Shown here: positions 1,364-58,929 of the stretch, in pieces
Position numbering within the stretch: the stretch's first letter is position 1
Layout: every line of letters starts with the position of its first letter
From: an uncultured Fidelibacterota bacterium
GTDB lineage: Bacteria > Fidelibacterota > Marinisomatia > Marinisomatales > Marinisomataceae
DNA length: 64,000 nucleotides
Assembly: GCA_902538565.1 (NCBI GenBank)
Contig: CACBFQ010000002.1
Coordinates: 285,908-349,907 of the forward strand
Direction of reading: 5' to 3'
Position numbers and translations under genes: made by a program
Notes under the pieces: model-generated
The model's input: only the letters and a program-made list of their open reading frames with translations
Databases searched by the model: none
Told to the model about the DNA's origin: nothing

Positions 1364-1437
<74 letters not shown>

Positions 1438-1446
1438 CAACTTTCA

Positions 1447-2591: not shown

Positions 2592-3644
2592 ATGTTTAAA
2601 AAATCACTATATGTATTTTTATTATTTTTTATGATTAGCTGCGGTGGTGGAGGTGGTGATGGAGATGATTCCGGTGGAACCAGTCCAAGTAATGACCCTC
2701 CTGTTGCAAGCTTCACAGCAAATCCACTAAGCGGCGGAGCACCATTAGCGGTAACATTTACTTCTACATCAACAAACGCAACTTCGTATGAGTGGGATTT
2801 TAATGGTGATGGCATATTAGATGCATCTGGAGCTAGTGTCCAATATACATATAATGATGCAGGTGCATATTCTGTTTCATTAACGGCAACTGGACCTAAT
2901 GGAACAGACTCTACAACAAGAGCTAATTATATTAATGTATCACCTACTCCTCCGACTGCTGTTTTTTTTACAAATGATTCCACAACCGGAAAAAAAGATT
3001 TAAGAGTTGAATTTATCAATGGTTCAGTTAGATATACGACATCCCTTTGGGACTTTGGTGATGGCAATACTAGTTCAGATACAAATCCGATACACACTTA
3101 TACAACATCTGGTACGTTTGATGTGAGCTTATCAGTTACTGGAGACGGTGGAACAGATACATCTACCGTTCCTGCATTTGTAACAGTTGAAGATGTTCAA
3201 ACCCCTGCATTTGTTTTTGACCCTAAATATCTTGAAGTTTCAAGCGGATCATCATTTTCTCTTGACGTTAAAGTAATGGGAGTTACTGGGATGGCTGCTG
3301 CCCAAGTCGTAATATTTTACGACAATAGTTTAATGACCTATGACAGTACAACAGCAGGAGATTTTTTGAAAGGTGATTCAGATCCATTATTAGTCGTCAC
3401 TAGTAATCCTGGAGTAAATAGAGTTATCATTTATACATCATCTTTATCAAGTGATCTTCCATCAAATGATGGTGATGGGGTCATTGCAACCGTAAACTTC
3501 ACTCTTAATGGTTCGGTTGATACATTAGTAGATATTAATCTAGATTCATCACTTGGAGGTAGTGGTAGTTTGATGCTTGATGTTGATGGTGCAGACATTA
3601 CAGTTAATGATGCTGTTGGAGCATATATTTTAATTAATGAGTAA
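2592..3644 (+). CDS. Lipoprotein with two PKD domains and a C-terminal cohesin-like domain
   Basis: Lipobox FMIS-C, Gly/Asp linker, PKD motifs YEWDFNGDG and LWDFGDGNTS. The C-terminal ~145 aa (3204-3641) has the cohesin pattern FSLDVKV-GVTGMAAAQVVIFYDNSLM...GDFL...GDGVIATVNF. Confidence 0.8.
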   Translation: MFKKSLYVFLLFFMISCGGGGGDGDDSGGTSPSNDPPVASFTANPLSGGAPLAVTFTSTSTNATSYEWDFNGDGILDASGASVQYTYNDAGAYSVSLTATGPNGTDSTTRANYINVSPTPPTAVFFTNDSTTGKKDLRVEFINGSVRYTTSLWDFGDGNTSSDTNPIHTYTTSGTFDVSLSVTGDGGTDTSTVPAFVTVEDVQTPAFVFDPKYLEVSSGSSFSLDVKVMGVTGMAAAQVVIFYDNSLMTYDSTTAGDFLKGDSDPLLVVTSNPGVNRVIIYTSSLSSDLPSNDGDGVIATVNFTLNGSVDTLVDINLDSSLGGSGSLMLDVDGADITVNDAVGAYILINE

Positions 3645-6600
3645 AATAAATATGAAAAGAATATATTATATAATCGGTCTTTTAATTTTTGGTTTAATTT
3701 CATATAAACCAGTAAACAATTATTTAATCGAACTGGAGCGACAAGAACATGAACAATATGTAAATCGCTTAAATTCATATCATAGTTTTTATGAAAGCTC
3801 AAGAAAATTACCAAAAGATCAACGACCTGATTTAAGGGGTCTTCGTGAACACTTAATGACTGTAGATCTTTCTGAAAAACGCGTGCCTAAAGAAAGATTA
3901 ATTGAGGCTATTAAAGAAACTGAAGAAAGAAAAAGTACTTATGCGTTTCGTAATAGAATGACTGAAGTAGATTGGGAAGAAAGAGGTCCTAATACAATTG
4001 GTGGAAGAACTAGAGCCGTAATGTTTGATCCTAATAATTCTACAAAAATTTGGGCTGCTGGTGTTAATGGCGGTTTGTGGTACAATAATGATATAACTTC
4101 AAATACTCAAGATTGGAATTTAGTAGATGGAACATGGGCAAGTTTAGCAGTTTCATCTATGGCATATGATCCAAATAACACGGATGTAATGTATGTTGGA
4201 ACAGGAGAAAGATTTGGAAACTGGGTAGAGTCAGGTTCAAACTGGTATAGCCCTGGTGCGTCAGCTGGAATTGGAATGTTTAAATCCACGGACGGAGGAA
4301 ATACCTGGAGTCACCTATCCTCTACTTCAGATTTTGCTTTCATCACTGATATTTTTATAAGAGATGAAAATGGTCAAAATGCGATATATATAACAGTTGC
4401 TGGAAATGAATATGAAGGAATATATGTTGGTAGACCAGCGACAGGAATTTGGAAATCATCTGATCAAGGTAATTCATGGACAAGAGTAACCGAGACTATT
4501 CAAGAAACAACTGGTAATACTGAATTTAATAATATTCAGGAAGGTGTTGATGGAAGATTATGGTCAGGATCTAGAATGAATTCTTATTGGAGTGGTGGTG
4601 GAGAAATTTATTACTCAGATGATAATGGATCATCTTGGACAACTGCTACTTGGTCATCAGGATTAAATAATAATGGGAACAGAGTTGATGTTCGTGTTGC
4701 ACCTTCTGATCCTAATACTGTTTATGCATTAATTGGACAAATTGCAACTCCTAGATGGTTGGCAAAAACCACTGACAATGGAGCCTCATGGACTGTACTC
4801 GACTTACCAACCAACGAAGATACAAGTTCTCAAAGTTATGGGGGATATCTAAGTGACGTTAATGGTACTGCAAATTGGGCGATTGGTTTTGGAGTAGATG
4901 CGACAGATGCGAATATAATTTATGCTGGTGTAATAGATGCATATAAGTCAACAGATGGTGGAGTATCATGGACACATATTAGTGATTGGAGAGGTTCAGG
5001 TGGAGGCTTACAGTACTTGCATGCAGACCATCATGCCGTACGATCAATCAATAACAATGAAATTGTTTTCGCTAATGATGGAGGTATTTTTTATACAGTT
5101 GATGGTGGTACAAACATTTATCAACGAAATGAAGGTTATAATGTAGGACAATTTTATAGCGTTGCACTTCATCCCGAAGCTTCAAACCAATATGTTTTAG
5201 GAGGTACTCAAGATAATGGTTCTTGGAAAATAGGTGCTACTGGAATTGCTAGTGGAAGTGAAGTTACAGGTGGTGATGGTGGTTTTGCTCATATTGATCA
5301 ATTAGATCCTAATTATCAGTTCACAGCAGCCAATGGGAATAACATTTATAGGTCAACTAATGGTGGATTAAGTTGGTCAACTTATTCAAATCATACGGAG
5401 GGAACACTAATTAATCCTTCTGGAATTGATTCATCTACAAAAACAATATACACCAATGCTGGTGCAACTGGTATCATGCGACTAGATGATTATACAGCCT
5501 TAGCATCGAAGTATACAATGAATATAAACTTGGGTAGTTCAGCAACTTTCTTTAAAGCATCTCCGCATACCGATGATGTTATTTTTGTTGGAACTGCAGG
5601 TGGAAGAATATTTAAAATTTTAAATGCATCTACATCAAATTTTAGCGTTGAAGAAATTACTGGTTCAAATGTTCAAGGTTATATATCGTCAATTGATATT
5701 GGTGCAAGTGATGAACAAATTTTAATTACAGTTTCCAATTATGGTGCCCAATCTATCTTCGAAACTTATTCAGGTGGTGGTCCAAGTGGATGGACGAATG
5801 TTGAAGGTGATTTACCAGATATGCCTGTTAGAGCTGCCTTGTATAATAGAAATAATTTTAATCAAGTTATTGCAGGAACAGACTTGGGTACATGGACTTG
5901 CGATGATATTTCAACTTCATCACCAGCTTGGGTTCCTTCAAATGATGGGTTAAATAATGTGAGAGTAGATATGCTTGTTAATAGATCATCTGATGGTGCG
6001 ATTGCTGCTGCAACACATGGAAGAGGAATATTTTATTCAGCAAATGGATTTACATCAACTGCTCCATTAAACGCTGCTTTTTCACCAGATAAAACTTCAG
6101 GTGTCTTTCCTTTAACTATTAATTTTAGTGATAGATCCACTGGTAATGTTTCAAGTTGGAGTTGGGATTTCGGTGATGGTAATACAAGTACTGAGCAATC
6201 CCCTTCACATACATTTGCTACTGCTGGAAAATACACTGTAAGCCTACAAGTTACAGATGGAACTTCAAATGATAGTGAATCAAAAACTGACTTAGTATGG
6301 GCTACAGCGGTTCAAGATACATTATATGAAGAGGGATTTGAATCTGCCCCTTATGGTAGAGTAGATTTTATGGGAAGAAATACTTATGCATGGCCTACTT
6401 ATAATGTAAATAATGATGCTGAAGCATTTAGCTGGTGGTATTATACTGCTGGATATGGCGCAGCAGATGGAAGTCACTGGATGGCTGGCCTTGGAATGGC
6501 AGGTGCCGGTGCTGCTGATGACTGGTTAGTAAGCCCTGAATTATATTTAAGACCTGGCACAGATAATATTTTAAGTTTTTATACCAACATGAATGGTGGA

Positions 6601-8403
6601 AGCGAAACATATGATGTTTTATTGGCTCCATCTCCAGATAGTTCTCTTGAATTATCAGATTTTTCTGTTACTTTAGCAAATGTAGTTGACGAAAGTACTA
6701 GTACTTGGACACAACAGACATATGATCTTTCTGCATACGCTGGCACTAAAGTTCGAATTGGAATACATGTAAAAACAACAACACAACAATATGCTTTCTG
6801 GGACAACTTTACTGTTACTGCAGGACAATTAAGTGCTGATGGTGCCCCACTTGCTCCTCAAGGAATCGTTGTGGCAAGAGACATTGATTCTTCAGGCCCA
6901 GTTGATGCAATTGAATTATATTGGAATAGAAATGGTGAACCTGATTTTGCTTCATACAATGTGTATGGAAGTTTAACAGAAGGTTTTGTAGCTGACTCAA
7001 ATACACTTTTAGGCCAAGGTACTTTAGGCGACATAAATTCTACACATTATGAGCCTTCTCCTTCAACTACACCATGGCCAGATACTACTTTTGTGTATAC
7101 GCAGACTTATGCGATAGATAATTATGTTCATCCTGCAACTTCTGGTGAAGAATGGTTCTTTAAAGTAAGTGCAGTGGATACTGATGGAAATGAAACTTTA
7201 AGTGATGAATTATCATTCTTACTTGACACAGTTTCACCTACTGCAGGTACGTTCACAGTTGAAAACCTTGTTGATGGCTACTTGAAATCTTTAACTGAAA
7301 TAACTGTTGATGCTGATGGATTTAGCGATGATACGGGAATAGTAGACTATGTTCTTGATATAGGGACTTCAAGTAGTTCATATGGATCTGCAGTAATTGC
7401 TGCTGGTGATGAACTTACTTTAACAGGACTATCTTTACCTGATCAGACAGAACTTACCATATATTTATACGCTCGAGATGGTGGTGGTAATAACTCTGAA
7501 CTTGTTTCCCAGAATGTGACCACTTACGTTTCATATTTAGGTGATTATGATAGCGATAATGATGTTGATATTGAAGACCTCAATGTATTTGTAAATGCAT
7601 GGCCTAATGCTGGAGTAGATAGCTCAGTAGATCTTGGTCCTGCCACTGGTACTGCTCCATATCTTGTTCCTTCTCCTGACAACGTAAATGATGTTAAAGA
7701 TTTAAGCGTATTTTCTAGAATGTGGCTTTGGACTAAAGCGCAAGGAAGAACCGTCGAAGACATTGAAATTATGCCAACTGAATTTGAAGCAGAAATTTTA
7801 GGCAATCAAATCATTATTGAACTTCCTGAGGGCGTAACTGCTGGAAGATTTGAAATTGGAAATATCAATAATATTTATGATTTCAATACTGATCAAAAAC
7901 AAGGCTACTTAGTTCTAGAAAATGAAAATGAAGAAAACGAATATTACGAAGTTGAATTCGGAAACCTATCTTCAAATGATGGCAAAATTGTAATCAATAT
8001 TGATGGTGCTCCAATTTCTAGTGATATTGAATTAAACTATCAATTCTTCACTGCAGAGGGAATGATTGGAAATGGCATGATGCAACTTAGAAATCCTGAT
8101 GAATTCAACTTGTATCAGAATTATCCAAATCCATTTAACAATCAAACCACTATCATGTATGATATACCATCACTAATGGTAAATACTGTTGATGTAGAAA
8201 TACTTATCTACAACACTGTTGGTACACTTGTAAGAACCTTAGATGAAGGTGACAAAGGTGCTGGACAACATACTACTTTATGGGATGGTAGAAATGACGA
8301 TGGTGAAAAAGTAAGTAGTGGAGTATATTTCTATCAACTTAGAGCTAAGGTTGATGGTCAAAGTGATTACAATAAAACCAAGAAAATGGTTATTGTAAGA
8401 TAA
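3637..8403 (+). CDS. Large secreted multidomain protein: BNR/Asp-box (Vps10/GH74-like) propeller + PKD + cleaved-adhesin/MAM-like + FN3-like + dockerin-like + T9SS/FlgD-Ig C-terminal domain
   Basis: WEERGP.IGGRTRA start; about 7 S/TxDxGxxW Asp-boxes; WSWDFGDG PKD; DDWLVSPEL; GDYDSDNDVDIEDL dockerin repeat (7540-7725); LYQNYPNPFN...WDGRNDDGEKVSSGVYFYQL CTD. An alternative start is ATG 3652. Confidence 0.85.
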   Translation: MSKINMKRIYYIIGLLIFGLISYKPVNNYLIELERQEHEQYVNRLNSYHSFYESSRKLPKDQRPDLRGLREHLMTVDLSEKRVPKERLIEAIKETEERKSTYAFRNRMTEVDWEERGPNTIGGRTRAVMFDPNNSTKIWAAGVNGGLWYNNDITSNTQDWNLVDGTWASLAVSSMAYDPNNTDVMYVGTGERFGNWVESGSNWYSPGASAGIGMFKSTDGGNTWSHLSSTSDFAFITDIFIRDENGQNAIYITVAGNEYEGIYVGRPATGIWKSSDQGNSWTRVTETIQETTGNTEFNNIQEGVDGRLWSGSRMNSYWSGGGEIYYSDDNGSSWTTATWSSGLNNNGNRVDVRVAPSDPNTVYALIGQIATPRWLAKTTDNGASWTVLDLPTNEDTSSQSYGGYLSDVNGTANWAIGFGVDATDANIIYAGVIDAYKSTDGGVSWTHISDWRGSGGGLQYLHADHHAVRSINNNEIVFANDGGIFYTVDGGTNIYQRNEGYNVGQFYSVALHPEASNQYVLGGTQDNGSWKIGATGIASGSEVTGGDGGFAHIDQLDPNYQFTAANGNNIYRSTNGGLSWSTYSNHTEGTLINPSGIDSSTKTIYTNAGATGIMRLDDYTALASKYTMNINLGSSATFFKASPHTDDVIFVGTAGGRIFKILNASTSNFSVEEITGSNVQGYISSIDIGASDEQILITVSNYGAQSIFETYSGGGPSGWTNVEGDLPDMPVRAALYNRNNFNQVIAGTDLGTWTCDDISTSSPAWVPSNDGLNNVRVDMLVNRSSDGAIAAATHGRGIFYSANGFTSTAPLNAAFSPDKTSGVFPLTINFSDRSTGNVSSWSWDFGDGNTSTEQSPSHTFATAGKYTVSLQVTDGTSNDSESKTDLVWATAVQDTLYEEGFESAPYGRVDFMGRNTYAWPTYNVNNDAEAFSWWYYTAGYGAADGSHWMAGLGMAGAGAADDWLVSPELYLRPGTDNILSFYTNMNGGSETYDVLLAPSPDSSLELSDFSVTLANVVDESTSTWTQQTYDLSAYAGTKVRIGIHVKTTTQQYAFWDNFTVTAGQLSADGAPLAPQGIVVARDIDSSGPVDAIELYWNRNGEPDFASYNVYGSLTEGFVADSNTLLGQGTLGDINSTHYEPSPSTTPWPDTTFVYTQTYAIDNYVHPATSGEEWFFKVSAVDTDGNETLSDELSFLLDTVSPTAGTFTVENLVDGYLKSLTEITVDADGFSDDTGIVDYVLDIGTSSSSYGSAVIAAGDELTLTGLSLPDQTELTIYLYARDGGGNNSELVSQNVTTYVSYLGDYDSDNDVDIEDLNVFVNAWPNAGVDSSVDLGPATGTAPYLVPSPDNVNDVKDLSVFSRMWLWTKAQGRTVEDIEIMPTEFEAEILGNQIIIELPEGVTAGRFEIGNINNIYDFNTDQKQGYLVLENENEENEYYEVEFGNLSSNDGKIVINIDGAPISSDIELNYQFFTAEGMIGNGMMQLRNPDEFNLYQNYPNPFNNQTTIMYDIPSLMVNTVDVEILIYNTVGTLVRTLDEGDKGAGQHTTLWDGRNDDGEKVSSGVYFYQLRAKVDGQSDYNKTKKMVIVR

Positions 8404-13050: not shown

Positions 13051-13053
13051 AAG

Positions 13054-13135
13054 TACCGTGGAAAGGACTCGAACCTTCACATCTTACGATACTGGTTCCT
13101 AAGACCAGCGCGTCTACCAATTCCGCCACCACGGC
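13054..13135 (-). tRNA. tRNA-Leu(TAG), CCA not encoded
   Basis: Acceptor GCCGTGG/CCACGGT, anticodon arm CTGGT-CTTAGGA-ACCAG, long variable arm, GGTTCGA T-loop. Confidence 0.96.
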
Positions 13136-37702: not shown

Positions 37703-37776
37703 GCCCCGGTAGCTCAGCTGGATAGAGCAACGGATTTCTAATCCGTAGGTCACAGGTTCAAATCCTGTCCGGGGTA
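37703..37776 (+). tRNA. tRNA-Arg(TCT), CCA not encoded
   Basis: Acceptor GCCCCGG/CCGGGGT, anticodon arm ACGGA-TTTCTAA-TCCGT, GGTTCAA T-loop. Confidence 0.97.
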
Positions 37777-37844
37777 CAATAAATCCTTCCTTTATTTCAT
37801 AAAACTAATCCATTATATTTATATAAACTAATTAGGAGAGTCAT

Positions 37845-43390: not shown

Positions 43391-44977
43391 TTAGTTACTT
43401 TCTTCTGACCATACTGTCCAGCCATCAAAAGCATCATCGTTGAAACCAGCTTTTAAAGCACCAACAAATGTTGCAGATGCATCCATACTAGCTTCAGTCG
43501 GAGTTGATCCTGTAAACTCGGTTGTTGGAAGTAAGCTTGCTTCTGTTACGCCAGTATTACCATCTTGTACATTAAATGTAAAGCTAGCACCTGGATCCGT
43601 TCCATCAGTAGCTGCAACTGTTGCAGGAGTTGGAACATCATCCATAACATTTAAAGGATCTAACCAGATGTATCGTCCATCAGCATCATTTGTAGGAGGA
43701 GTTGAACCATTTACAACAAATGTTCCATCTAAATTTCCATCTTCATTAGTAGCACGGAAACCTCTTCTTTGCTGATCTACCAACATATAATTTTGGAAGT
43801 GTCCAGCAGTTCCTTCTCTTAATCTTAAAGACTCATCTTCAGAAGATCCGCTGTTATTTCCTACAATTGTTACATTAGAAAATTTAGGAAATGAATCGTC
43901 TGCAGACTGGCTGCTGTTTCTTCCATCCATTTCATGTCCTCTATTTGAGGTTGAACCTCTAACTACAACTAGGAATTGTCCTGTTCCTTGGTATCCGGTG
44001 TCTGTATCAAATCCGTCGTCACCGACTTTATATACCATACAGTATCTTAAATCAACAGTTCCACCAAACATTTCAAAACCGTCATCAAAGTTATAAGCTA
44101 CTTCACAGTAACTAACTTCTGTTCCAGTTCCAACACCAGCTAATGTAATACCATTAATTTCATTATCTGGAGCAATTGCTCTACCACCATAACGAACTGA
44201 AACATATCTTAATGTACCAGAGTCATCAGCAGCATCTGTACCACCATAAGGTACTGAAGCAACACCCTCAACGGTTCTAGTTCCACCGCCTTGAATTGGT
44301 GCATAACCACAGACAATTAATCCACCCCATGCTCTACCACCAACAATTGGAAGTCTGTCTGGTTCGTCTCTTGCAATAACTGATGTCATGATAATTGGAG
44401 CATTAGCAGTACCTACTGCTTCAATCATTCCACCTTGCCATACTACGATTGCAGGAGCGTTTCCATTACCATCATCTGATAATGCATAAATGTTAGATCC
44501 AGCTGCAATTGTTAACGTTGCACCATCTCTAACTTGTAGTTGACCAGAAAGTACATAATCACCGCTTAAATCTAAATCTGAAGTAACATCTCCATATAAA
44601 CTTCTTTCAACATTCATATCCATTGAGTATGAATTTGATAAAGTTGTTGTACCATCTAAAGCGGTTGTAGTAACTGTTAACGTAACAGTTTTTGAACCTC
44701 TGGAAGAGAATGTATGTGAACCACTTGGAGCAACAGCAGTTGCTTCACCATTAAAATCCCATGAATATGCTACTCCAGCACCAGTACCGTTAGAAGCAGC
44801 CTGATCATCTGAAATAGAAAAATTATAGGTTAATGTTCCCATCACATGCTCAGCGTTAAATGGCTGTGCAGATGGAGGAAGAGTAGTATTATCAACAGTC
44901 TCTGTATCGTTGTCATCACATGATGTAAAAAGAAATACACTTGCGAAAATAGACAATATGATTTTTTTACTATTCAT
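43391..44977 (-). CDS. Surface lipoprotein: PKD-like domain plus acidic right-handed beta-helix domain (TBDT partner)
   Basis: Lipobox FTS-C; YSWDFNG; WGGLIVCG, GGTDAADDSGTLRYVSVRYGG, NEINGITLAGVG, DDGFEMFGGTV, DDGFDTD. Confidence 0.8.
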   Translation of the reverse strand: MNSKKIILSIFASVFLFTSCDDNDTETVDNTTLPPSAQPFNAEHVMGTLTYNFSISDDQAASNGTGAGVAYSWDFNGEATAVAPSGSHTFSSRGSKTVTLTVTTTALDGTTTLSNSYSMDMNVERSLYGDVTSDLDLSGDYVLSGQLQVRDGATLTIAAGSNIYALSDDGNGNAPAIVVWQGGMIEAVGTANAPIIMTSVIARDEPDRLPIVGGRAWGGLIVCGYAPIQGGGTRTVEGVASVPYGGTDAADDSGTLRYVSVRYGGRAIAPDNEINGITLAGVGTGTEVSYCEVAYNFDDGFEMFGGTVDLRYCMVYKVGDDGFDTDTGYQGTGQFLVVVRGSTSNRGHEMDGRNSSQSADDSFPKFSNVTIVGNNSGSSEDESLRLREGTAGHFQNYMLVDQQRRGFRATNEDGNLDGTFVVNGSTPPTNDADGRYIWLDPLNVMDDVPTPATVAATDGTDPGASFTFNVQDGNTGVTEASLLPTTEFTGSTPTEASMDASATFVGALKAGFNDDAFDGWTVWSEESN

Positions 44978-44989
44978 TTTCTTATCCTT

Positions 44990-45013
44990 TTTATACTATT
45001 ATTTATACTATTA
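44990..45013. repeat. Perfect 12-bp tandem direct repeat TTTATACTATTA x2
   Basis: Seen directly, immediately upstream of the lipoprotein RBS. Confidence 0.85.
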
Positions 45014-45063
45014 GTGTGTGGAAAAAACCCACCGACGCAAACTAGATTTACAAATTGAGTTTG

Positions 45064-45096
45064 CTATTTGAAATTTGTTAGGATTATGTTTGAATT
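45064..45096 (-). promoter_or_regulatory. Candidate Pho box (three units) upstream of the lipoprotein gene
   Basis: AATTCAAACAT-AATCCTAACAA-ATTTCAAATAG, 11-bp period, starting 1 nt after the TBDT stop. Confidence 0.7.
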
Positions 45097-45097
45097 T

Positions 45098-47953
45098 TTA
45101 ATTAAAATCGTAAGTCATACTTAAAGATATAGATATACCTGGTTCAAGTATCTTTGTATCTAACTTATTTCCAGTATCAGTTTTTAAATAGTGTTCAATC
45201 TTGCTATTTAAAAGATTTTTTGCCTTAACACTAACTGATAATCCATTTTCAAATTTTTTCTTTGAAGTAAAATTTAAAGAATGAAAAGGTGCTTCAAAAT
45301 AATGTCCTGTTACATCTCCTACTTTAATAATTCTTTCACTAAAACCATTATAAGAAAGTGAAATTTCGTATCCTGAACTAAGAATTGTATCCAAGGCAAG
45401 ATTCCCTAAAAATTCTGAATGACCCATTAATGGCCTATTGGCCTGATCTTCAATTGGAGTGACTGCAAATGGAGACACTACAAAATCATTTACATCTACA
45501 TCTGATGATGACAGTGTAGCGTTTGCAGTTAAAATTTGGGTAGCACTTGATGAGGGAAATAAATTTATCTTCTTCCTAATATCAAACTCTAATCCATAAA
45601 TCGCTGCAGATTTTGCATTATTATACATACTATATGATCTTTCTACATTTACTAATAATACCTCTTCAACAGGTTTTTGCATATCTTTAGCAAATAATGA
45701 AACTGACCATACTTCACCTCCGGAAGGATATACTTCGTATCTAAGATCAAAATTTGTGACTTCAGATTGTTCAAGTGTGGGGACTCCAATATATTGATCA
45801 TCGCCATAAAATGCTTGATATTCAAGTGGTGCATATTCTCTAAATTCTGCTCTTGCAACAGTTTGAGATAACGAAAATCGCACTTTTGAATTCTCTGAAG
45901 TGTCAAAAATAAAATTGATAGAAGGAAGTACATAATTTTCATCAATATCTACAAGTGTTGGCTCTTGTGTAGGGTTGTTGTAAGGGTTCACATACGTTTG
46001 ACCAGTTACGGTATTGTATGGCCTAAGGTCTAATGTATACATTTCATATCTCATACCACCAATAAAAGTAATAGGTATAGCAAAAGAATCAAATTTTCTT
46101 TCAATCATTGAGAAAATTGCATTTGTCTTTTCATCTGCATCGTATGCAGCTCGTGCAAGCTGTGCTGCCTCTTCAACAATGATTAAACCACTATTTCCAT
46201 CAAAAAAGTTTTCTTCATCAAACGATCTTCCAAAATCATTATTATTAACCTCCAGAAGATTGTTTGGCCATGTTCCATTAGAATGAGTATAATAAAAAAT
46301 TCTCTTTTTAAAAGTCCTATCTCTCTGCTGAATTCTAAGTCCACTCTTTAATTGAAAGTTTTCAAAATTAACTTTATACGACAAATCTAAACTATTATTT
46401 GTATCATCTCCATCAGCCCAAAATCTTAAGCCAGGCGACGTACTACTGACATCAACAGTATAAGGATTTAATGCGCTTTGCCTTGAGTAAGTATGAGAAG
46501 CAACATCTGGTTCGTACAATGAAGCAGAACCTAAATTTATTGACCAATCAAGTTCGCTTGGATTAGAAGAATAAAATATACTACTACCTTCCAAAGATAA
46601 ATTAGATAATGCTTTTTCACTATAATAATGCTGAATGGTTACTGCGTCTTCTAAATTTTTAAGTACCCCAGAAGCATAAGATAATTTATCACTTGCCTTG
46701 TGACTTAATAAAAAAGATAATTTAAACTTGTGATCTTGTAAATATTTTAAACCTGTGCTCATATTTAATACATGGTTGGCATTATAAATGGATGTTTCTC
46801 TTTGGAGGTTCAAATATCTTGATAGTTCTGTATTGTCATAATATCTACCAATATTTTCATCCTCAAAATCATAAGAGTTACCAAAAGAATAATTTATAAA
46901 GTATCCATACTCATAATCACCGTTTGAACTATTAAACTTTTGACCATTTTCAATACCAAATGAAATTTGAGGGCTGGTACTTTTTGAATTAGTACGATAA
47001 TTTTGTTTGAATTTATTTGTATTTGTCGATAATAATTCTCGCCATTGTGAAGAAGTATAGTTCTGTGGATTAGTTGAACCAGATGTTAATGGATATCTAA
47101 ACTCTGACAACCAAAAATCTTTTGGAACGTCAGGCATTTTATTATCATTTCCATCTATACCAAAAAAATTAATGCCATTATTAGATGTTCTAAATCTACT
47201 ATTATCAATTGATGAAATTGTTCCAGCGCCAAACTTTAGCTTCATTATTTTTTTGTCTGGATATGCTAAAGTTTTAATATTTACCACCCCTCCAGCAAAA
47301 GTTCCAGGTAAGTCAGGAGTGAACGTTTTTTTTGCACTTAATCCAGAAATAATTGAAATAGAAAAAAGATCTAGAGGAACAGCTCTTTTTTCGGGTTCTG
47401 GGGTAGCTAAGTCAGAATTATTTAATTGAGTATTTGTATACCTATCACCTAACCCTCTTACAGCAACAATGTTATCAACTACAGAAACACCAGTCACTCT
47501 TCTAAACGCATCTGCTGCATTAGAATCCCCCGCTTTTGACATTCTTTCTAAACTTATTGCATCTTCAACATTAGATGATTCTTTTCTGTCAATAATTATA
47601 CTTATATCGCTACCATCGACTGCTTGACCAGTCACCTCAACACCAGATAACTGTACGGCATCTATTGATAAAGCTATATCAAAATTATTTTGCCCCTCTA
47701 AAAGATTAATTGAAAATCTTTCGGATTTATAACCTATGTACGAAACATTTAGTACAACTTCGCCTGGTTGAGTAAAAATCGTGAAGGAACCATTTAAATC
47801 AGAAGCTGCTCCATTATTTGAGTCTTCAATAATAATATTTACGCCGACTAGGGCTTCTCCAGAATCCTTATCAGTGACAGTACCAGTTAGAACAGATAAA
47901 TCTTGACAAAAAATGAAACTTAATGATAAAAATACTACTTTAAATATTCTCAA
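45098..47953 (-). CDS. TonB-dependent receptor with N-terminal carboxypeptidase-regulatory-like extension (TTG start)
   Basis: GTVTDKDSGEALVG, LSGVEV, plug RVTGVSV...VRGLGDRY, NFDLRYE, C-terminal ISLSMTYDF; SD AGGAG 8 nt upstream. Confidence 0.92.
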   Translation of the reverse strand: MRIFKVVFLSLSFIFCQDLSVLTGTVTDKDSGEALVGVNIIIEDSNNGAASDLNGSFTIFTQPGEVVLNVSYIGYKSERFSINLLEGQNNFDIALSIDAVQLSGVEVTGQAVDGSDISIIIDRKESSNVEDAISLERMSKAGDSNAADAFRRVTGVSVVDNIVAVRGLGDRYTNTQLNNSDLATPEPEKRAVPLDLFSISIISGLSAKKTFTPDLPGTFAGGVVNIKTLAYPDKKIMKLKFGAGTISSIDNSRFRTSNNGINFFGIDGNDNKMPDVPKDFWLSEFRYPLTSGSTNPQNYTSSQWRELLSTNTNKFKQNYRTNSKSTSPQISFGIENGQKFNSSNGDYEYGYFINYSFGNSYDFEDENIGRYYDNTELSRYLNLQRETSIYNANHVLNMSTGLKYLQDHKFKLSFLLSHKASDKLSYASGVLKNLEDAVTIQHYYSEKALSNLSLEGSSIFYSSNPSELDWSINLGSASLYEPDVASHTYSRQSALNPYTVDVSSTSPGLRFWADGDDTNNSLDLSYKVNFENFQLKSGLRIQQRDRTFKKRIFYYTHSNGTWPNNLLEVNNNDFGRSFDEENFFDGNSGLIIVEEAAQLARAAYDADEKTNAIFSMIERKFDSFAIPITFIGGMRYEMYTLDLRPYNTVTGQTYVNPYNNPTQEPTLVDIDENYVLPSINFIFDTSENSKVRFSLSQTVARAEFREYAPLEYQAFYGDDQYIGVPTLEQSEVTNFDLRYEVYPSGGEVWSVSLFAKDMQKPVEEVLLVNVERSYSMYNNAKSAAIYGLEFDIRKKINLFPSSSATQILTANATLSSSDVDVNDFVVSPFAVTPIEDQANRPLMGHSEFLGNLALDTILSSGYEISLSYNGFSERIIKVGDVTGHYFEAPFHSLNFTSKKKFENGLSVSVKAKNLLNSKIEHYLKTDTGNKLDTKILEPGISISLSMTYDFN

Positions 47954-49724: not shown

Positions 49725-49729
49725 AGATG

Positions 49730-49802
49730 CTCCGGAGGAGGGACTCGAACCCCCGACCTGGTGATTAACAGTCACTCGCTCTACCAACTGAGCTACTCCG
49801 GA
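49730..49802 (-). tRNA. tRNA-Asn(GTT), CCA not encoded
   Basis: Acceptor TCCGGAG/CTCCGGA, anticodon loop CTGTTAA, GGTTCGA T-loop. Confidence 0.96.
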
Positions 49803-55821: not shown

Positions 55822-58800
55822 TTACCAGTCGTAACCGAAAGATATTATATATTGTGGTTTTGAATAACCTCCACTTGGGTATTTATCCCATGCTGTATCA
55901 ATTCTAATTAAAGCAAATGGAGTAAAAATTTTTGTTCCGATACCAAAAGTAGTTAATATTGGAGAAGCTTCAGGATCTGTTAGCCCATATTTATTTCTAA
56001 CTAACTCACTATTATTGAATTCATCAGATGAATCCCAGGCTGCTCCAACATCTACAAAAAGATGACCAAAAATATTACCAAATCTAATTCTAGCAGGAAA
56101 ACTTACATCAACATAGTTAACAAATGGGAATCTAAATTCAAAGTTAGCTACAGCTACATTTTCTCCCACTCTTTCTCTATATCTTGCACCTCTTAATGGA
56201 AAGACATATTCACTAAAATAAACATCCTCTAGAATGCTTGTATTGTCATAATCAAGAACTCGTTGAGCATAAAATCCCGAATCATCTCTTCCTTCTGTTT
56301 GCGTGTCTGAAAAAATCATCATTTGTGAATTTCCACCTAAGAAAAACTTTTGAGGTCTATCTCCAACGCTTTTACCCAACATCAACCTTGCCGCTAAACT
56401 ATAATTTCTGTTAATCTTATAATATTTTCGCATATCAAATTTTAGAGTTTGAAATGGCATAGAATTTGAACCTATGTCAGGGCTAAATTGAAATGTAAGA
56501 TATTGCTTAAATCCATCTACTGGACCAGTATAACCATTAGTAGAATTATCAAATACAAAACTTGTAATAGGAACCACTGCTTTTAAATTTTCTTTATAAT
56601 TTGTTGACGTTTGAAAAGTAAAAATATCAAATTGCTTAATTTCATAATCTACATTTCTGAGTGTTGCTCCAAAATCTAATCTCATAAATTTAGAAAAAGG
56701 GTATTGTCCGTAAAATCCAATACCGTAATCTCTAAGTTGGCCAATGAAGTCATAATTCATATTATATCCCAAAGAAAATGTATTAGCTTGTTGGAATAAT
56801 GTAGTATAATAATTTGTTCTATTTTTTAGATATGCATACTGAACTACTAAATCGCTATTATTTAAATCTAGAACTAAATTGGTACCAACGTTGATTCTAT
56901 GATCACCCATTACGTCGCTCCACGATAAGTTTGCGACACCACGAGTTCCAAAAAGATTATCAATGGTTGCTGTGGTGGCTATATAATCTACAGAAAAATC
57001 AGTTTGATATTTTCTTGCTAAATAATCATCCTTAAAACGCAAAGAATCAACTTCTACTTCTTCATTATTATCTTTCTTATCATTTCTGTACTGATAATTT
57101 CTGGCAAAAATATATTTGGAATAATCTTCTGGACTTAATGTGACTTTTTTGCTAGTAAAAGTTCTTAAATCTTCAAAATCAGTATTACGGTTTTTATTTG
57201 CATAAAATTTTGTAGGCTTAATTTCCTTTTCTGAAAAAGAATTAGGATTTTTCATTATATATAAATCCCAACCTCGTTTCTTAAATCCTGAAAAAACCAA
57301 ATTATCACTACTATCTAAATCTATCTGCTGAACACCAGTTACAACATTAGTAATTGGAAAAGCTTCATTATTACTAAGATTATGTTTAAAAATATTTGTA
57401 ATACCATTATAGTCTGCAGTATAAAATAAATTTCCATCTGAACTGGCAACTGGATAATTTTCATTATATTCAGTATTAGTTATTTGAGAAACTGTATTGG
57501 TTTGATAACTATATTGAAATATATCGGTTTGAGAAAAATCAACATCATACATATTGTTAGCGCTAGTATTTTGACCTCTATCTGAAGTAAAATAAATTAT
57601 TTCACCATTTGAAGACCAGCTTGGTGAAGATTCTGAAAAGATATCGTTGGTAATATTTGTAACCTCTTTTGTTGTTAAATCAATAACATAAATGTCACTT
57701 GAATCATCCTTGTGACCCATAAATGCAATCCTATTTTCAGTTGGGTGCCATGAAGTAGTAAAAACTCCATCAAGATCTATAGGAATCTTTTTATATTTTC
57801 CAGATTTAATATCTACAATGATAATTGAATCTTGCTCTCCGCTCTTAGAAGCAAATGATATAGATTTCCCATCTGGTGACCAAGAAATTCCAGGTTGCAA
57901 CCATTTTAATTCCTCAAAATCTGGAGTAGTATTTCCTCTAATTAGGCGCCTTTTTTGCTTTTCAGAATCAACCTCATATAAAATTAAATCCATATAGCCA
58001 TCTTGGTCAGAAAAGTAAGCAATAGTATTACCATCTGGCGAAAATGAAGGGCTAACATTATAAAAATTTCTTGTTTCAGTTCTATCAGTTATTTTTGTTG
58101 AAAAGTCATCAAAATTTTCCCTATTTACTAGATCAGGCCAATATTCCCTTTTAACAAAATCATGCCAATCTTCAGTAAGTTTTTCATAATCAACTCCTAG
58201 AGCGCTTTCAAAACCACGCTCATCATTCTGCGCTCTTTTCATTTGCTGAAAAATTTCACCAACTTTCTCTCTACCATATTTTTGAGTAATGTATTGCCAA
58301 ACAGACTGTCCTCCTTTATATGCTAAAATAGAATAATTAAGTTCAGGTATTGAAGGCAGTCTGTCTTCAATTGCTAGATCTCTTAGTACCATATCTGAAT
58401 TAGTATCCCAGTCAACAGATAAAAATTCAGCTAAACCTTCATTAGCCCATAGCGGAACTTGTACACGGATTCTTCCACTTATCAAACCTTGTGCATTTCC
58501 TCCATACACCAGCTCATTTATCGCTGCATGAACGAGCTCATGATGAATTACATGTTCAAACTGTTCGTAAGAACCTTCAAAAGGAATAACAATTCTATTT
58601 TTATATAATTCCGTTACTCCCCCAACACCCTCTGACATATATACATTTACAACGTTTGTTTGCTGGAAATCGTTATGGGATGTATAAACAATAATTTTAA
58701 TTGGTTTATTACTTCTCCATCTTAAATGTTTTCCAATTTGCTCGATGGATCTTTCTGCTACTTTAGATGTAAAAATAGCTAGGTCTTTATTATCTCCGTA

Positions 58801-58929
58801 GTAATAAATATTGGTATTTGGACTTACAATGTATTCCCAATTAAAGGATTCATATTGAACCTTATTTTGCCCAAAACTTTGTGGATATAAAAGATTAGTT
58901 AATAATAATATAGTAAGTATAATGCGCAT
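55822..58929 (-). CDS. Omp85/BamA-family protein fused to an N-terminal gluzincin-like peptidase domain and PD40/TolB-like propeller
   Basis: FGQNKVQY start, HHELVH + W..EGLAE, repeated PSFSPDG/SWSPDG/PSWSSNG, barrel motif PLRGARY, C-terminal ISFGYDW. Confidence 0.85.
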   Translation of the reverse strand: MRIILTILLLTNLLYPQSFGQNKVQYESFNWEYIVSPNTNIYYYGDNKDLAIFTSKVAERSIEQIGKHLRWRSNKPIKIIVYTSHNDFQQTNVVNVYMSEGVGGVTELYKNRIVIPFEGSYEQFEHVIHHELVHAAINELVYGGNAQGLISGRIRVQVPLWANEGLAEFLSVDWDTNSDMVLRDLAIEDRLPSIPELNYSILAYKGGQSVWQYITQKYGREKVGEIFQQMKRAQNDERGFESALGVDYEKLTEDWHDFVKREYWPDLVNRENFDDFSTKITDRTETRNFYNVSPSFSPDGNTIAYFSDQDGYMDLILYEVDSEKQKRRLIRGNTTPDFEELKWLQPGISWSPDGKSISFASKSGEQDSIIIVDIKSGKYKKIPIDLDGVFTTSWHPTENRIAFMGHKDDSSDIYVIDLTTKEVTNITNDIFSESSPSWSSNGEIIYFTSDRGQNTSANNMYDVDFSQTDIFQYSYQTNTVSQITNTEYNENYPVASSDGNLFYTADYNGITNIFKHNLSNNEAFPITNVVTGVQQIDLDSSDNLVFSGFKKRGWDLYIMKNPNSFSEKEIKPTKFYANKNRNTDFEDLRTFTSKKVTLSPEDYSKYIFARNYQYRNDKKDNNEEVEVDSLRFKDDYLARKYQTDFSVDYIATTATIDNLFGTRGVANLSWSDVMGDHRINVGTNLVLDLNNSDLVVQYAYLKNRTNYYTTLFQQANTFSLGYNMNYDFIGQLRDYGIGFYGQYPFSKFMRLDFGATLRNVDYEIKQFDIFTFQTSTNYKENLKAVVPITSFVFDNSTNGYTGPVDGFKQYLTFQFSPDIGSNSMPFQTLKFDMRKYYKINRNYSLAARLMLGKSVGDRPQKFFLGGNSQMMIFSDTQTEGRDDSGFYAQRVLDYDNTSILEDVYFSEYVFPLRGARYRERVGENVAVANFEFRFPFVNYVDVSFPARIRFGNIFGHLFVDVGAAWDSSDEFNNSELVRNKYGLTDPEASPILTTFGIGTKIFTPFALIRIDTAWDKYPSGGYSKPQYIISFGYDW

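Follow-up and report, generated by a model that had tools for sequence, protein, structure and literature searches.

In Clostridium thermocellum, enzymes with type I dockerins are captured directly at the cell surface by the single-cohesin anchors OlpA and OlpC, which carry SLH repeats and sit on a Gram-positive wall. Cohesins and dockerins are also found outside cellulose degradation, in large secreted proteins, as in Archaeoglobus fulgidus (cohesin 2xdh) and the GH84C/GH33 toxin complexes of Clostridium perfringens (2w1n and 2ozn), whose dockerins are recognised by standard models and which are coupled with neither a lipoprotein nor the type IX secretion system (T9SS). To our knowledge, surface retention of T9SS substrates has been explained in just a few Bacteroidota, where it is either covalent to lipopolysaccharide or dependent on PorP-type partners. 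Type A cargo of the Porphyromonas T9SS is covalently anchored to lipopolysaccharide, and in both Flavobacterium and Porphyromonas type B cargo has a cognate outer-membrane partner of the PorP/SprF family, which is encoded beside the cargo gene and presumably retains or handles the cargo at the surface. Cohesin and dockerin domains also occur in the Cloacimonadota 'Ca. Stygibacter', of the FCB group, together with surface attachment through a C-terminal domain of the T9SS type, in a cellulosome-like complex that has been predicted only; there, a 3755-residue multi-cohesin scaffoldin bears the sorting domain and the enzymes bear standard C-terminal dockerins (PMC8542988).

In this study, we analyzed a pair of overlapping genes, gene 1 and gene 2, in a 64-kb stretch of DNA (the window). 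As in OlpA and OlpC, one cohesin on a cell-envelope anchor would capture a single dockerin-bearing protein; unlike them, gene 1 would be anchored through the lipid on its Cys, in a bacterium that is diderm and of the FCB type, and its overlapping neighbour encodes a predicted T9SS substrate whose module escapes the Dockerin_1 model and has a degenerate second repeat. The fixed cassette of dockerin-like module, cohesin-like domain and sorting domain found in the gene 2 family is absent from the A. fulgidus and C. perfringens pairs. In contrast with 'Ca. Stygibacter', it is the cargo that bears the sorting domain, the cohesin belongs to a small lipoprotein, and each cargo is paired with one lipoprotein in an operon. 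The locus resembles the PorP/SprF arrangement in having a cargo-specific envelope partner beside each large T9SS substrate, whereas the partner here is a cohesin lipoprotein and not a beta-barrel, the cargo has a type A/FlgD_ig-like tail and we propose a contact of the cohesin-dockerin kind. Judged from its sequence, the combination of cohesin lipoprotein and T9SS cargo appears to be a hitherto undescribed means of retaining secreted proteins at the surface of the cell.

The cohesin lipoprotein and its overlapping neighbour

Both open reading frames (Table 1) were confirmed, in agreement with the initial annotation, which had described them as a two-gene unit with overlapping stop and start. 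A second ATG at 3652, 8 nt beyond the stop of gene 1, is an alternative start for gene 2. The two genes probably form a bicistronic, translationally coupled pair of anchor and cargo.

Table 1. Positions of the two genes and their features in the window.
Feature	Position	Strand	Evidence
Gene 1, 350-residue lipoprotein (PKD-PKD-cohesin)	2592..3644	+	ORF
Signal peptide and lipobox M-I-S-C (Cys17 at 2640-2642), then Gly/Asp-rich linker	2592..2642	+	Read by eye
Two PKD domains, stalk (residues about 41-117, 120-199)	2712..3188	+	Pfam PKD_4 4.5e-25, PKD 5.4e-18; AF2 pLDDT 92-98
Cohesin domain (Pfam match 3237-3587)	3204..3641	+	PF00963 and Foldseek
Gene 2 ATG overlapping gene 1 TAA, 8 nt, ATGAGTAA	3637..3644	+	Read from sequence
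Gene 2, 1588-residue predicted T9SS cargo protein	3637..8403	+	ORF and domain matches
BNR / Sortilin-Vps10-type region, GH74-like (residues about 123-787)	4003..5997	+	Pfam Sortilin-Vps10 52 bits; orthologue profile vs PDB
PKD domain (residues 817-885)	6085..6291	+	Pfam PKD_4 1.8e-18
Choice-of-anchor J (MAM-like) domain (residues 913-1060)	6373..6816	+	NCBIfam NF038128, 59 bits, cutoff 30
Dockerin-like module (residues 1295-1375)	7519..7761	+	Module-family profile, column counts
Module loop 1, canonical (residues 1303-1314)	7543-7578	+	Column counts
Module loop 2, degenerate (residues 1344-1355)	7666-7701	+	Column counts
Post-module beta-sandwich, cohesin-like (residues about 1377-1495)	7765..8121	+	hhalign; Pfam in relatives; Foldseek
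T9SS type A C-terminal sorting domain (residues 1496-1588)	8122..8400	+	Pfam, TIGR04183

The N-terminus of gene 1 is MFKKSLYVFLLFFMISC, followed by a Gly run, and the lipobox (MFKKSLYVFLLFFMIS-C) was read by eye, without a lipoprotein predictor. Cys17 and G18-G22 were unchanged in all 10 orthologues, and the signal peptide and lipobox are those expected of a bacterial lipoprotein. Residues 216-332 matched Pfam Cohesin (PF00963; gathering score 24.1) with 41.6 bits. The AF2 model had a pLDDT of 83.7, with the cohesin domain mostly at 70-90 and one 10-residue block at 63, and showed the flattened, jelly-roll beta-sandwich of cohesins. In Foldseek, this domain superposed on solved cohesins with target-normalised TM values of 0.82 for 6kgc and for the A. 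fulgidus cohesin 2xdh, which was among the best single-domain matches, 0.81 for Coh-OlpA (3ul4) and 0.80 for 5nrk; the TM for Coh-OlpC (4dh2) was 0.74. By HMM and predicted fold, the C-terminal domain of gene 1 is a genuine cohesin. Thus, the initial description of gene 1 as a one-cohesin lipoprotein on a PKD stalk held, including at the search against Pfam Cohesin that had been suggested as a check. Gene 1 had 537 homologues, and among the best 120 of them all but one were annotated with both PKD and Cohesin.

By Pfam, gene 1 has one cohesin and lacks a CBM, and gene 2 was the only module-bearing gene within the window. On these grounds, together with the one-to-one pairing seen in five families, a classical cellulosome was rejected.

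The C-terminal cassette of gene 2

Sequence comparison indicates that gene 2 ends in a conserved cassette, in which a dockerin-like module is followed by a cohesin-like domain and a T9SS sorting domain. In its first loop, the module has the canonical calcium-binding pattern of dockerins (D-x-[DN]-x-[DN]-x3-[DN]-x2-D-L), with positions 1 and 12 invariant in 69 of 69 family members, and an [ED][LI]GPxxGxxP linker comes after this loop. Loop 2 kept only positions 5, 9 and 12, and its positions 1 and 3 were hydrophobic or Pro. The duplicated calcium-loop segment lies where the initial annotation had placed it, with a canonical first loop and a degenerate second one. The possibility that the motif is a chance acidic run was rejected on two grounds. 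Across public genomes and metagenomes, the module is present in at least 638 protein clusters, and the strict pattern of a 12-residue loop plus helix, for which shuffling predicted 0.015 occurrences, was seen once (residue 1303) in the window ORFs, which total about 20,000 residues.

Standard dockerin models did not recognise the module. Pfam Dockerin_1 (PF00404), the other search suggested at the outset, matched neither gene 2 nor the isolated 76-residue segment at E<=10, and NCBIfam dockerin_GC reached 16.3 bits on gene 2 against a cutoff of 29. By the refuting test that the initial annotation had proposed for itself, the dockerin assignment thus fails at the Pfam search. Among 54 module-bearing relatives, Dockerin_1 matched two, weakly (best 8.7e-4), and a homologue search with the gene 2 C-terminus returned only close orthologues and fragments, none of them annotated as dockerin. 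A 69-sequence module profile run against PDB at E<=10 recovered 19 sequences: 16 dockerins, including that of 2ozn, and three EF-hand or sarcoplasmic Ca-binding proteins. The matches to solved dockerins were weak (E 0.003-0.1) and confined to the first repeat, the best being 5lxv_B (0.0029), 2vn5_B (0.0094) and 8ajy_B (0.012); a narrower 9-sequence profile found no dockerin among PDB sequences. Two helices were predicted in the module by AF2 (pLDDT <45), and the model of the gene 2 C-terminus, at pLDDT 29-43 across the module, was too poor to judge the fold. It appears that gene 2 carries a divergent dockerin-like module, tied to true dockerins by the weak first-repeat profile matches.

We call the post-module domain cohesin-like because its family profile aligned with the gene 1 family on the cohesin region (hhalign probability 80%, E 1.4e-5) and because Pfam Cohesin fell on this position in the relatives P0222, P0275, P0266 and P0312. 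Pfam Cohesin had no match on the post-module domain of gene 2 itself, and the domain profile found nothing among PDB sequences. The top Foldseek match of the gene 2 C-terminal model was 2w1n, a cohesin plus FN3 construct, which is suggestive only, the model being poor in the module. The sorting domain scored 41.6 bits with Pfam FlgD_ig (gathering score 27), 26 with CHU_C and 21 with Por_Secre_tail (below 27), and was borderline with TIGR04183 (23.0 against a cutoff of 23); as in T9SS type A substrates, a C-terminal domain of about 80 residues matched curated models. A Por_Secre_tail T9SS tail was present in 52 of 54 cassette relatives. The module always sat about 220 residues from the C-terminus in relatives, and module, post-module domain and sorting domain co-occurred at fixed spacing in nearly all members. 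Both the sorting domain and the cohesin-like domain between module and tail had been overlooked in the initial annotation.

Recurrence of the gene pairing and its possible meaning

The pair was syntenic in relatives of 50-99% identity, and one orthologue was located on NCBI GCA_000402655.1 / AQSI01000001.1, which we take to be a SAR406/Marinimicrobia single-cell genome. Distant module-bearing genes were sought by a locus scan with a subgroup alignment of the module family; the loci fetched in this analysis are marine. At four of them (L138, L146, L159 and L169), a cohesin-only lipoprotein gene lay directly upstream and overlapped the cargo start by 11 nt (type ATGCGCAGTAG). Pfam Cohesin scored 30.9, 21.5, 43.2 and 25.1 bits on these lipoproteins, respectively, and the four lipoboxes were LVSC, LLGC, FISC and FLGC. 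The C-terminal region alone is common to these cargos and gene 2 (29-32% identity over 256-444 residues), and their passengers, assigned by Pfam to beta-helix, LTD/CBM20 and NHL, are unrelated and differ from that of gene 2. The residues after the lipid-modified Cys were acidic in all five lipoproteins, gene 1 included, a stretch that presumably resembles the Bacteroidota surface-lipoprotein export signal.

Gene context was visible in five distinct cargo families, this window's included, which represent a minority of the 638 clusters, and in four of the five a cohesin lipoprotein gene was immediately upstream and overlapping. The remaining family, of about 2185 residues (L115, L120, L124, L125 and L131), had no adjacent cohesin gene. 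As a negative control, we used 80 loci (about 1.2 Mb) fetched by a gene 1 alignment scan that was driven by PKD motifs (WDFGDGNT) and returned mostly unrelated PKD proteins; here, the gene-1-type cohesin HMM found the true orthologue (L005) only. The pairing of cohesin lipoprotein and T9SS cargo is well supported by gene context and, in line with the initial annotation, is not accidental. Its gene-by-gene character argues for cognate anchors over a scaffold shared with other dockerin proteins, which the initial annotation had considered possible.

We propose that gene 1 is an outer-membrane lipoprotein presenting one cohesin, here on a two-PKD stalk, and that gene 2 is a large surface protein that would be exported via Sec and then T9SS. 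Once the sorting domain had been removed from the secreted cargo, its dockerin-like module would bind the cohesin of its own lipoprotein in trans and in a Ca2+-dependent manner, and the cargo would be tethered non-covalently at the cell surface, where the lipoprotein would be exposed. We regard this as the most likely mechanism, at about even odds. What the sequences show directly is which domains are present, that three of them form a cassette, that this cassette is widespread and that the gene pairing recurs. What counts against it is the Dockerin_1 failure, the degenerate second repeat, the unmodellable module, the cargo family lacking an adjacent cohesin gene and the fact that no T9SS core machinery gene was found among the window ORFs checked. 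Moreover, covalent lipopolysaccharide anchoring in Porphyromonas means that a protein anchor may be unnecessary, and the cohesin-like domain next to the module is a possible cis occupant, so that capture in trans by the lipoprotein is only one of several possible wirings.

One such wiring is intramolecular: the module would fold onto the cohesin-like domain that follows, forming a rigid stalk or a recognition unit of the T9SS tail, and the lipoprotein cohesin would bind something else or nothing. The fixed spacing of the cassette, the cohesin-like character of the post-module domain, the linker of just about 10 residues and the fact that the cassette also occurs, in at least one cargo family, with no cohesin lipoprotein beside it are consistent with this. 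However, the overlap with a cohesin lipoprotein gene in four of five cargo families would be left unexplained, the gene 2 domain has no Pfam Cohesin score, and the structural model, at pLDDT <45 in the module, does not support a clasp; we regard such folding as unlikely. In another wiring, the module of one T9SS cargo would bind the cohesin-like domain of the next, head to tail, with the cohesin-only lipoprotein as a membrane-proximal primer. This seems improbable; if true, it would mean a protein-only, Ca2+-dependent surface layer or anchoring that replaces lipopolysaccharide attachment in abundant uncultured marine FCB bacteria.

The lipoprotein might also face the periplasm, as a cargo-specific chaperone or delivery factor holding the C-terminal cassette until the cargo enters T9SS or while it is being exported. 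The one-to-one ratio of cohesin lipoproteins to cargo genes, tight translational coupling and the obligatory tie between module and T9SS tail would suit such a pilot, for which the cargo-specific PorP/SprF partners of type B substrates offer an analogue. On the other hand, the stalk of two PKD domains and the acidic residues that follow the Cys, presumably an export signal, fit surface display better, and all characterised cohesin-dockerin pairs that we know of are extracellular; a periplasmic role is quite unlikely in our view. We consider it very improbable that the two are independent surface proteins, co-transcribed for the same process (adhesion to or processing of marine polymers), with the 'dockerin' serving as a Ca2+-binding structural element. 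The failure of dockerin HMMs would fit, EF-hand-like loops are common in non-dockerin contexts and EF-hand proteins were among the profile matches, but the same pairing was seen with several unrelated passengers, nothing but the cassette and the cohesin being shared, and the control loci contained no other cohesin domains.

The presence of the cassette in so many clusters, recurring beside cohesin lipoprotein genes, points to modular, non-covalent plug-and-socket anchoring in uncultured, ocean-abundant bacteria. If tethering of each cargo by its own lipoprotein were confirmed, cohesin-dockerin biology would extend to diderm outer membranes and T9SS, and a dockerin subfamily missed by current HMMs would be defined. 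It would also help to annotate hundreds of giant marine surface proteins now listed as 'hypothetical' and provide new orthogonal binding pairs for surface display.

The passenger of gene 2

The initial annotation had described gene 2 as a secreted enzyme with a BNR propeller. The propeller was upheld, and a gene 2 orthologue profile run against PDB matched the GH74 xyloglucanases 6p2m (1.2e-15), 5fkq (2.9e-14) and 2cn2 (1.2e-12). The profile alignment paired the Asp of 'TDIGG' in 6p2m, presumably a catalytic residue of GH74, with the Val of 'AGVSGG' in gene 2, and the second catalytic position was not alignable. The passenger is GH74-like in sequence and at most a putative enzyme. Its GH74-like BNR propeller comes first, ahead of the PKD, choice-of-anchor J and Ig-like domains.

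Gene pair and its conservation

The two-gene unit with overlapping stop and start that was described in the initial annotation was confirmed, the start of gene 2 lying over the stop of gene 1 with an overlap of 8 nt (junction ATGAGTAA). An alternative in-frame ATG of gene 2 is present at 3652, with a gap of 7 nt to the stop of gene 1. The product of gene 1 begins with MFKKSLYVFLLFFMISC followed by GGGGGDGDD, which we read as a lipobox-containing signal peptide; the lipobox cysteine and the glycine run were both invariant across orthologues. Pfam analysis revealed two PKD domains and, at the C-terminus, a Cohesin domain (41.6 bits; gathering score, 24.1). When an AF2 model built from ten orthologues (pLDDT 83.7) was compared with solved structures by Foldseek at the level of single domains, the cohesin reached target-normalised TM values of 0.82 with 2xdh, a non-cellulosomal cohesin of Archaeoglobus, 0.82 with C. 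acetobutylicum CohA2, 0.81 with C. thermocellum OlpA and 0.80 with 5nrk. Thus, a Pfam score above the gathering score and these fold matches indicated that the cohesin is real, and the lipoprotein ending in a cohesin, as first proposed, was borne out.

The pair and its flanking genes (YceG, DUF3098 and saccharopine dehydrogenase on one side; SIS-CBS, SDR and EamA on the other) were conserved in marine metagenome contigs and one NCBI assembly, with identities of 50%-99%. An orthologue was found on GCA_000402655.1 (NCBI), which we take to be a SAR406/Marinimicrobia single-cell genome. The relatives were all from marine metagenomes (Tara and others). In NCBI assembly GCA_038281905.1 (L090:5300-11107), orthologous gene 1 and gene 2 were split into many short called genes, which looks like assembly frameshift errors rather than pseudogenisation.

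Features of the gene pair, of related loci and of the window
Feature	Location	Strand	Details
Gene 1 ORF	2592..3644	+	350 residues
Gene 2 ORF	3637..8403	+	1588 residues
Hydrophobic signal or anchor	N-terminus of gene 2
BNR / Sortilin-Vps10-type repeats	gene 2, after N-terminus		~700 residues
PKD domain	gene 2, after BNR repeats		Pfam
Choice-of-anchor J domain	gene 2, after PKD		NCBIfam
Unassigned Ig/Fn3-like sequence	gene 2, between choice-of-anchor J and dockerin-like segment
Dockerin-like segment	gene 2, residues 1295-1375		followed by domain of ~120 residues
T9SS C-terminal sorting domain	end of gene 2		FlgD_ig 41.6 bits; TIGR04183 23.0 (cutoff 23)
Lipoprotein, locus L138	upstream of cargo		lipobox LVSC; Pfam Cohesin 30.9 bits
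Lipoprotein, locus L146	upstream of cargo		lipobox LLGC; Pfam Cohesin 21.5 bits
Lipoprotein, locus L159	upstream of cargo		lipobox FISC; Pfam Cohesin 43.2 bits
Lipoprotein, locus L169	upstream of cargo		lipobox FLGC; Pfam Cohesin 25.1 bits
LpoB/CsgG/TolB_N-like + DUF5683 genes	L138:661-1656, L159:3680-4681, L169:739-2151
Peptidase_S74-ending repeat protein genes	L115:3539-4315, L125:3-794
tRNA-Asp-GTC	1364-1438		between DUF3098 and saccharopine dehydrogenase, just upstream of pair
tRNA-Leu-TAG	13053-13135
tRNA-Arg-TCT	37703-37777
tRNA-Asn-GTT	49729-49802

Dockerin-like module and C-terminal cassette of gene 2

The last two parts of gene 2, a domain of ~120 residues and a T9SS tail, were absent from the initial annotation and matter for the interpretation; the tail also fits an FCB-group host. 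An orthologue profile of the BNR region matched GH74 xyloglucanases (E 1e-15 to 1e-12). In the best alignment, gene 2 has a valine opposite the aspartate of the 'TDIGG' motif, which we presume to be catalytic, so the earlier label of gene 2 as an enzyme is not justified. At the N-termini of gene 2 and its orthologues (3637-3720), a conserved S-Y/F-Q/K/E-P-x-K-N motif comes after a hydrophobic stretch, and no Ala-x-Ala cleavage site is obvious; this region may serve as a signal anchor that stays uncleaved, in place of a standard signal peptide.

Standard models do not recognise the gene 2 segment as a dockerin: Pfam Dockerin_1 matched neither the whole protein nor the isolated segment, and the dockerin_GC model gave 16 bits on gene 2, below its cutoff of 29. 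Dockerin_1 was weakly reached by two of 54 module-bearing relatives. A chance motif was ruled out by the excess of the strict loop-plus-helix pattern over expectation (once in ~20,000 residues of window proteins versus 0.015 expected from shuffles) and by the wide occurrence of the module: among 1.84 billion representatives, at least 638 protein clusters matched the 81-residue module profile at E<=1e-3, 227 of them at E<=1e-10. Across 69 diverse members, the first loop was canonical, D1303 and D1314 each being present in 69/69, together with D/N1305, D/N1307 and D/N1311. Column counts placed L-x-x-F-x-x-x-W after this loop. The [ED][LI]GPxxGxxP linker was strictly conserved, and we know of no such linker in classical dockerins. 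Only positions 5, 9 and 12 of the degenerate second loop were kept (D/N1348, D/N1352 and D1355). Against the PDB, the 69-sequence profile matched 19 sequences at E<=10, all restricted to the first repeat. Sixteen were dockerins (5lxv_B, 0.0029; 2vn5_B, 0.0094; 8ajy_B, 0.012; also 2y3n_B, 2ccl_B, 1daq, 2ozn and others), and three were EF-hand or sarcoplasmic Ca-binding proteins. AF2 pLDDT over the module was 29-43, too low to judge its fold. From these sequence comparisons, we conclude that this is probably a divergent, asymmetric dockerin-like module missed by current HMMs.

In 92 of the 104 module-bearing proteins longer than 400 residues, the module ended 200-300 residues from the C-terminus, and 52 of 54 scanned members carried a T9SS tail. 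Although Pfam Cohesin did not match the post-module domain of gene 2 itself, this copy being too divergent, four approaches identified the domain between module and tail as cohesin-like: (i) an HMM of the gene 1 cohesin matched this position in many members; (ii) Pfam Cohesin did so in relatives P0222 (25.7 bits), P0275 (23.7) and P0266 (20.4), and gave 52.1 bits for the whole of P0312 over two stretches, the best one between module and tail; (iii) hhalign of a 39-sequence profile led by gene 2's domain against the cohesin region of the gene 1 family gave 80% probability (E 1.4e-5); and (iv) the best Foldseek match of the gene 2 C-terminal model was 2w1n, a cohesin+FN3 construct of C. perfringens. 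Thus, dockerin-like module, cohesin-like domain and T9SS tail form, in this order, a cassette, which was found behind a wide variety of passengers, VWA, Ig-like, BNR and beta-helix among them.

Recurrence of the pairing and its interpretation

To look outside this lineage, metagenome contigs were scanned with a distant module subgroup, which yielded 80 marine loci, each carrying a single module gene; the 5' end of this gene was visible in 20. Loci whose upstream sequence was too short, and evident frameshift fragments, were set aside, which left five distinct cargo families, including that of the window. We found that in four of the five, the window's included, a cohesin lipoprotein was encoded immediately upstream of the cargo. 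At L138, L146, L159 and L169 this lipoprotein is small, little more than a cohesin, and its gene overlaps the cargo start by 11 nt in each case (junction type ATGCGCAGTAG). The passengers at these loci were beta-helix/pectinesterase-like, LTD+CBM20 or NHL-propeller, and only the C-terminal region was shared with gene 2. No adjacent cohesin gene was found in the fifth family (~2185 residues). When 80 control loci, totalling ~1.2 Mb, were searched with this cohesin HMM, it matched the true orthologue only. Recurrent pairing over unrelated passengers is the strongest evidence that the lipoprotein cohesin is functionally linked to the cargo cassette, and argues for a cognate pairing rather than a shared scaffold.

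The earlier interpretation of the two genes holds in part and has to be revised: the cargo is a predicted T9SS substrate, its dockerin is divergent and a cohesin-like domain lies in cis. A cognate anchor-and-cargo pair is the best explanation, which we hold with moderate confidence. After export of the cargo by the T9SS, its dockerin-like module would dock onto the cohesin of the lipoprotein from the preceding gene and so retain the cargo at the outer membrane; in this lineage a PKD stalk would carry it. The cassette also places a cohesin-like domain beside the module, and a cis clasp of the module on this neighbour seems rather unlikely; with the same parts, cargos might chain head to tail, primed by the lipoprotein, which we consider improbable. 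A role of the lipoprotein as a periplasmic pilot is improbable too, if marginally less so, and the absence of any specific interaction between the two products is the most doubtful reading.

In its mode of action, the pair would come closest to OlpA and OlpC, the anchoring proteins of C. thermocellum with one cohesin each, and it also resembles the non-cellulosomal cohesin-dockerin pairs of A. fulgidus and C. perfringens. A cellulosome was rejected on the basis of a single cohesin, an anchor without CBM, one-to-one pairing and no proven glycoside hydrolase. Within the FCB group, Cloacimonadota are predicted to form a cellulosome-like complex whose multi-cohesin scaffoldin is anchored through the T9SS (PMC8542988). 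A further report describes dockerins from Bacteroidetes of the rumen (PMC6487960). Our literature search found no paper joining Marinimicrobia/SAR406 with cohesin or dockerin, and none on a T9SS substrate with a cohesin lipoprotein as its partner.

Other features of the related loci and the window

The distant cargos (L093-L169) had 30-43% identity with one another over 650-1080 C-terminal residues, beyond the ~300-residue cassette; thus, in that subgroup conservation extends ahead of the module into a longer region with Fn3-like domains. The distant cargos begin with ordinary signal peptides. Three of the four distant pairs have, directly before the lipoprotein gene, a gene for a protein with LpoB/CsgG/TolB_N-like domains and then DUF5683, a possible third member of the unit; in the window, this position is taken by saccharopine dehydrogenase. 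In the ~2185-residue cargo family, the cargo follows a repeat protein with a Peptidase_S74 'chaperone of endosialidase' domain at its end, of the kind present in phage tail fibres.

The G+C content of the window is ~33%. On its minus strand, a 951-residue CarboxypepD_reg protein (TonB-dependent-receptor/SusC-like N-terminus) adjoins a 528-residue PKD protein (43391-47953), and the two may be a SusC/SusD-like uptake pair. A 1035-residue protein with Peptidase_MA_2 and PD40/WD40-like beta-propeller repeats, also on the minus strand (55822-58929), appears to be a large peptidase, either secreted or periplasmic. The remaining genes were housekeeping (ATP synthase, SecA, SecDF, AspRS and sigma-54).
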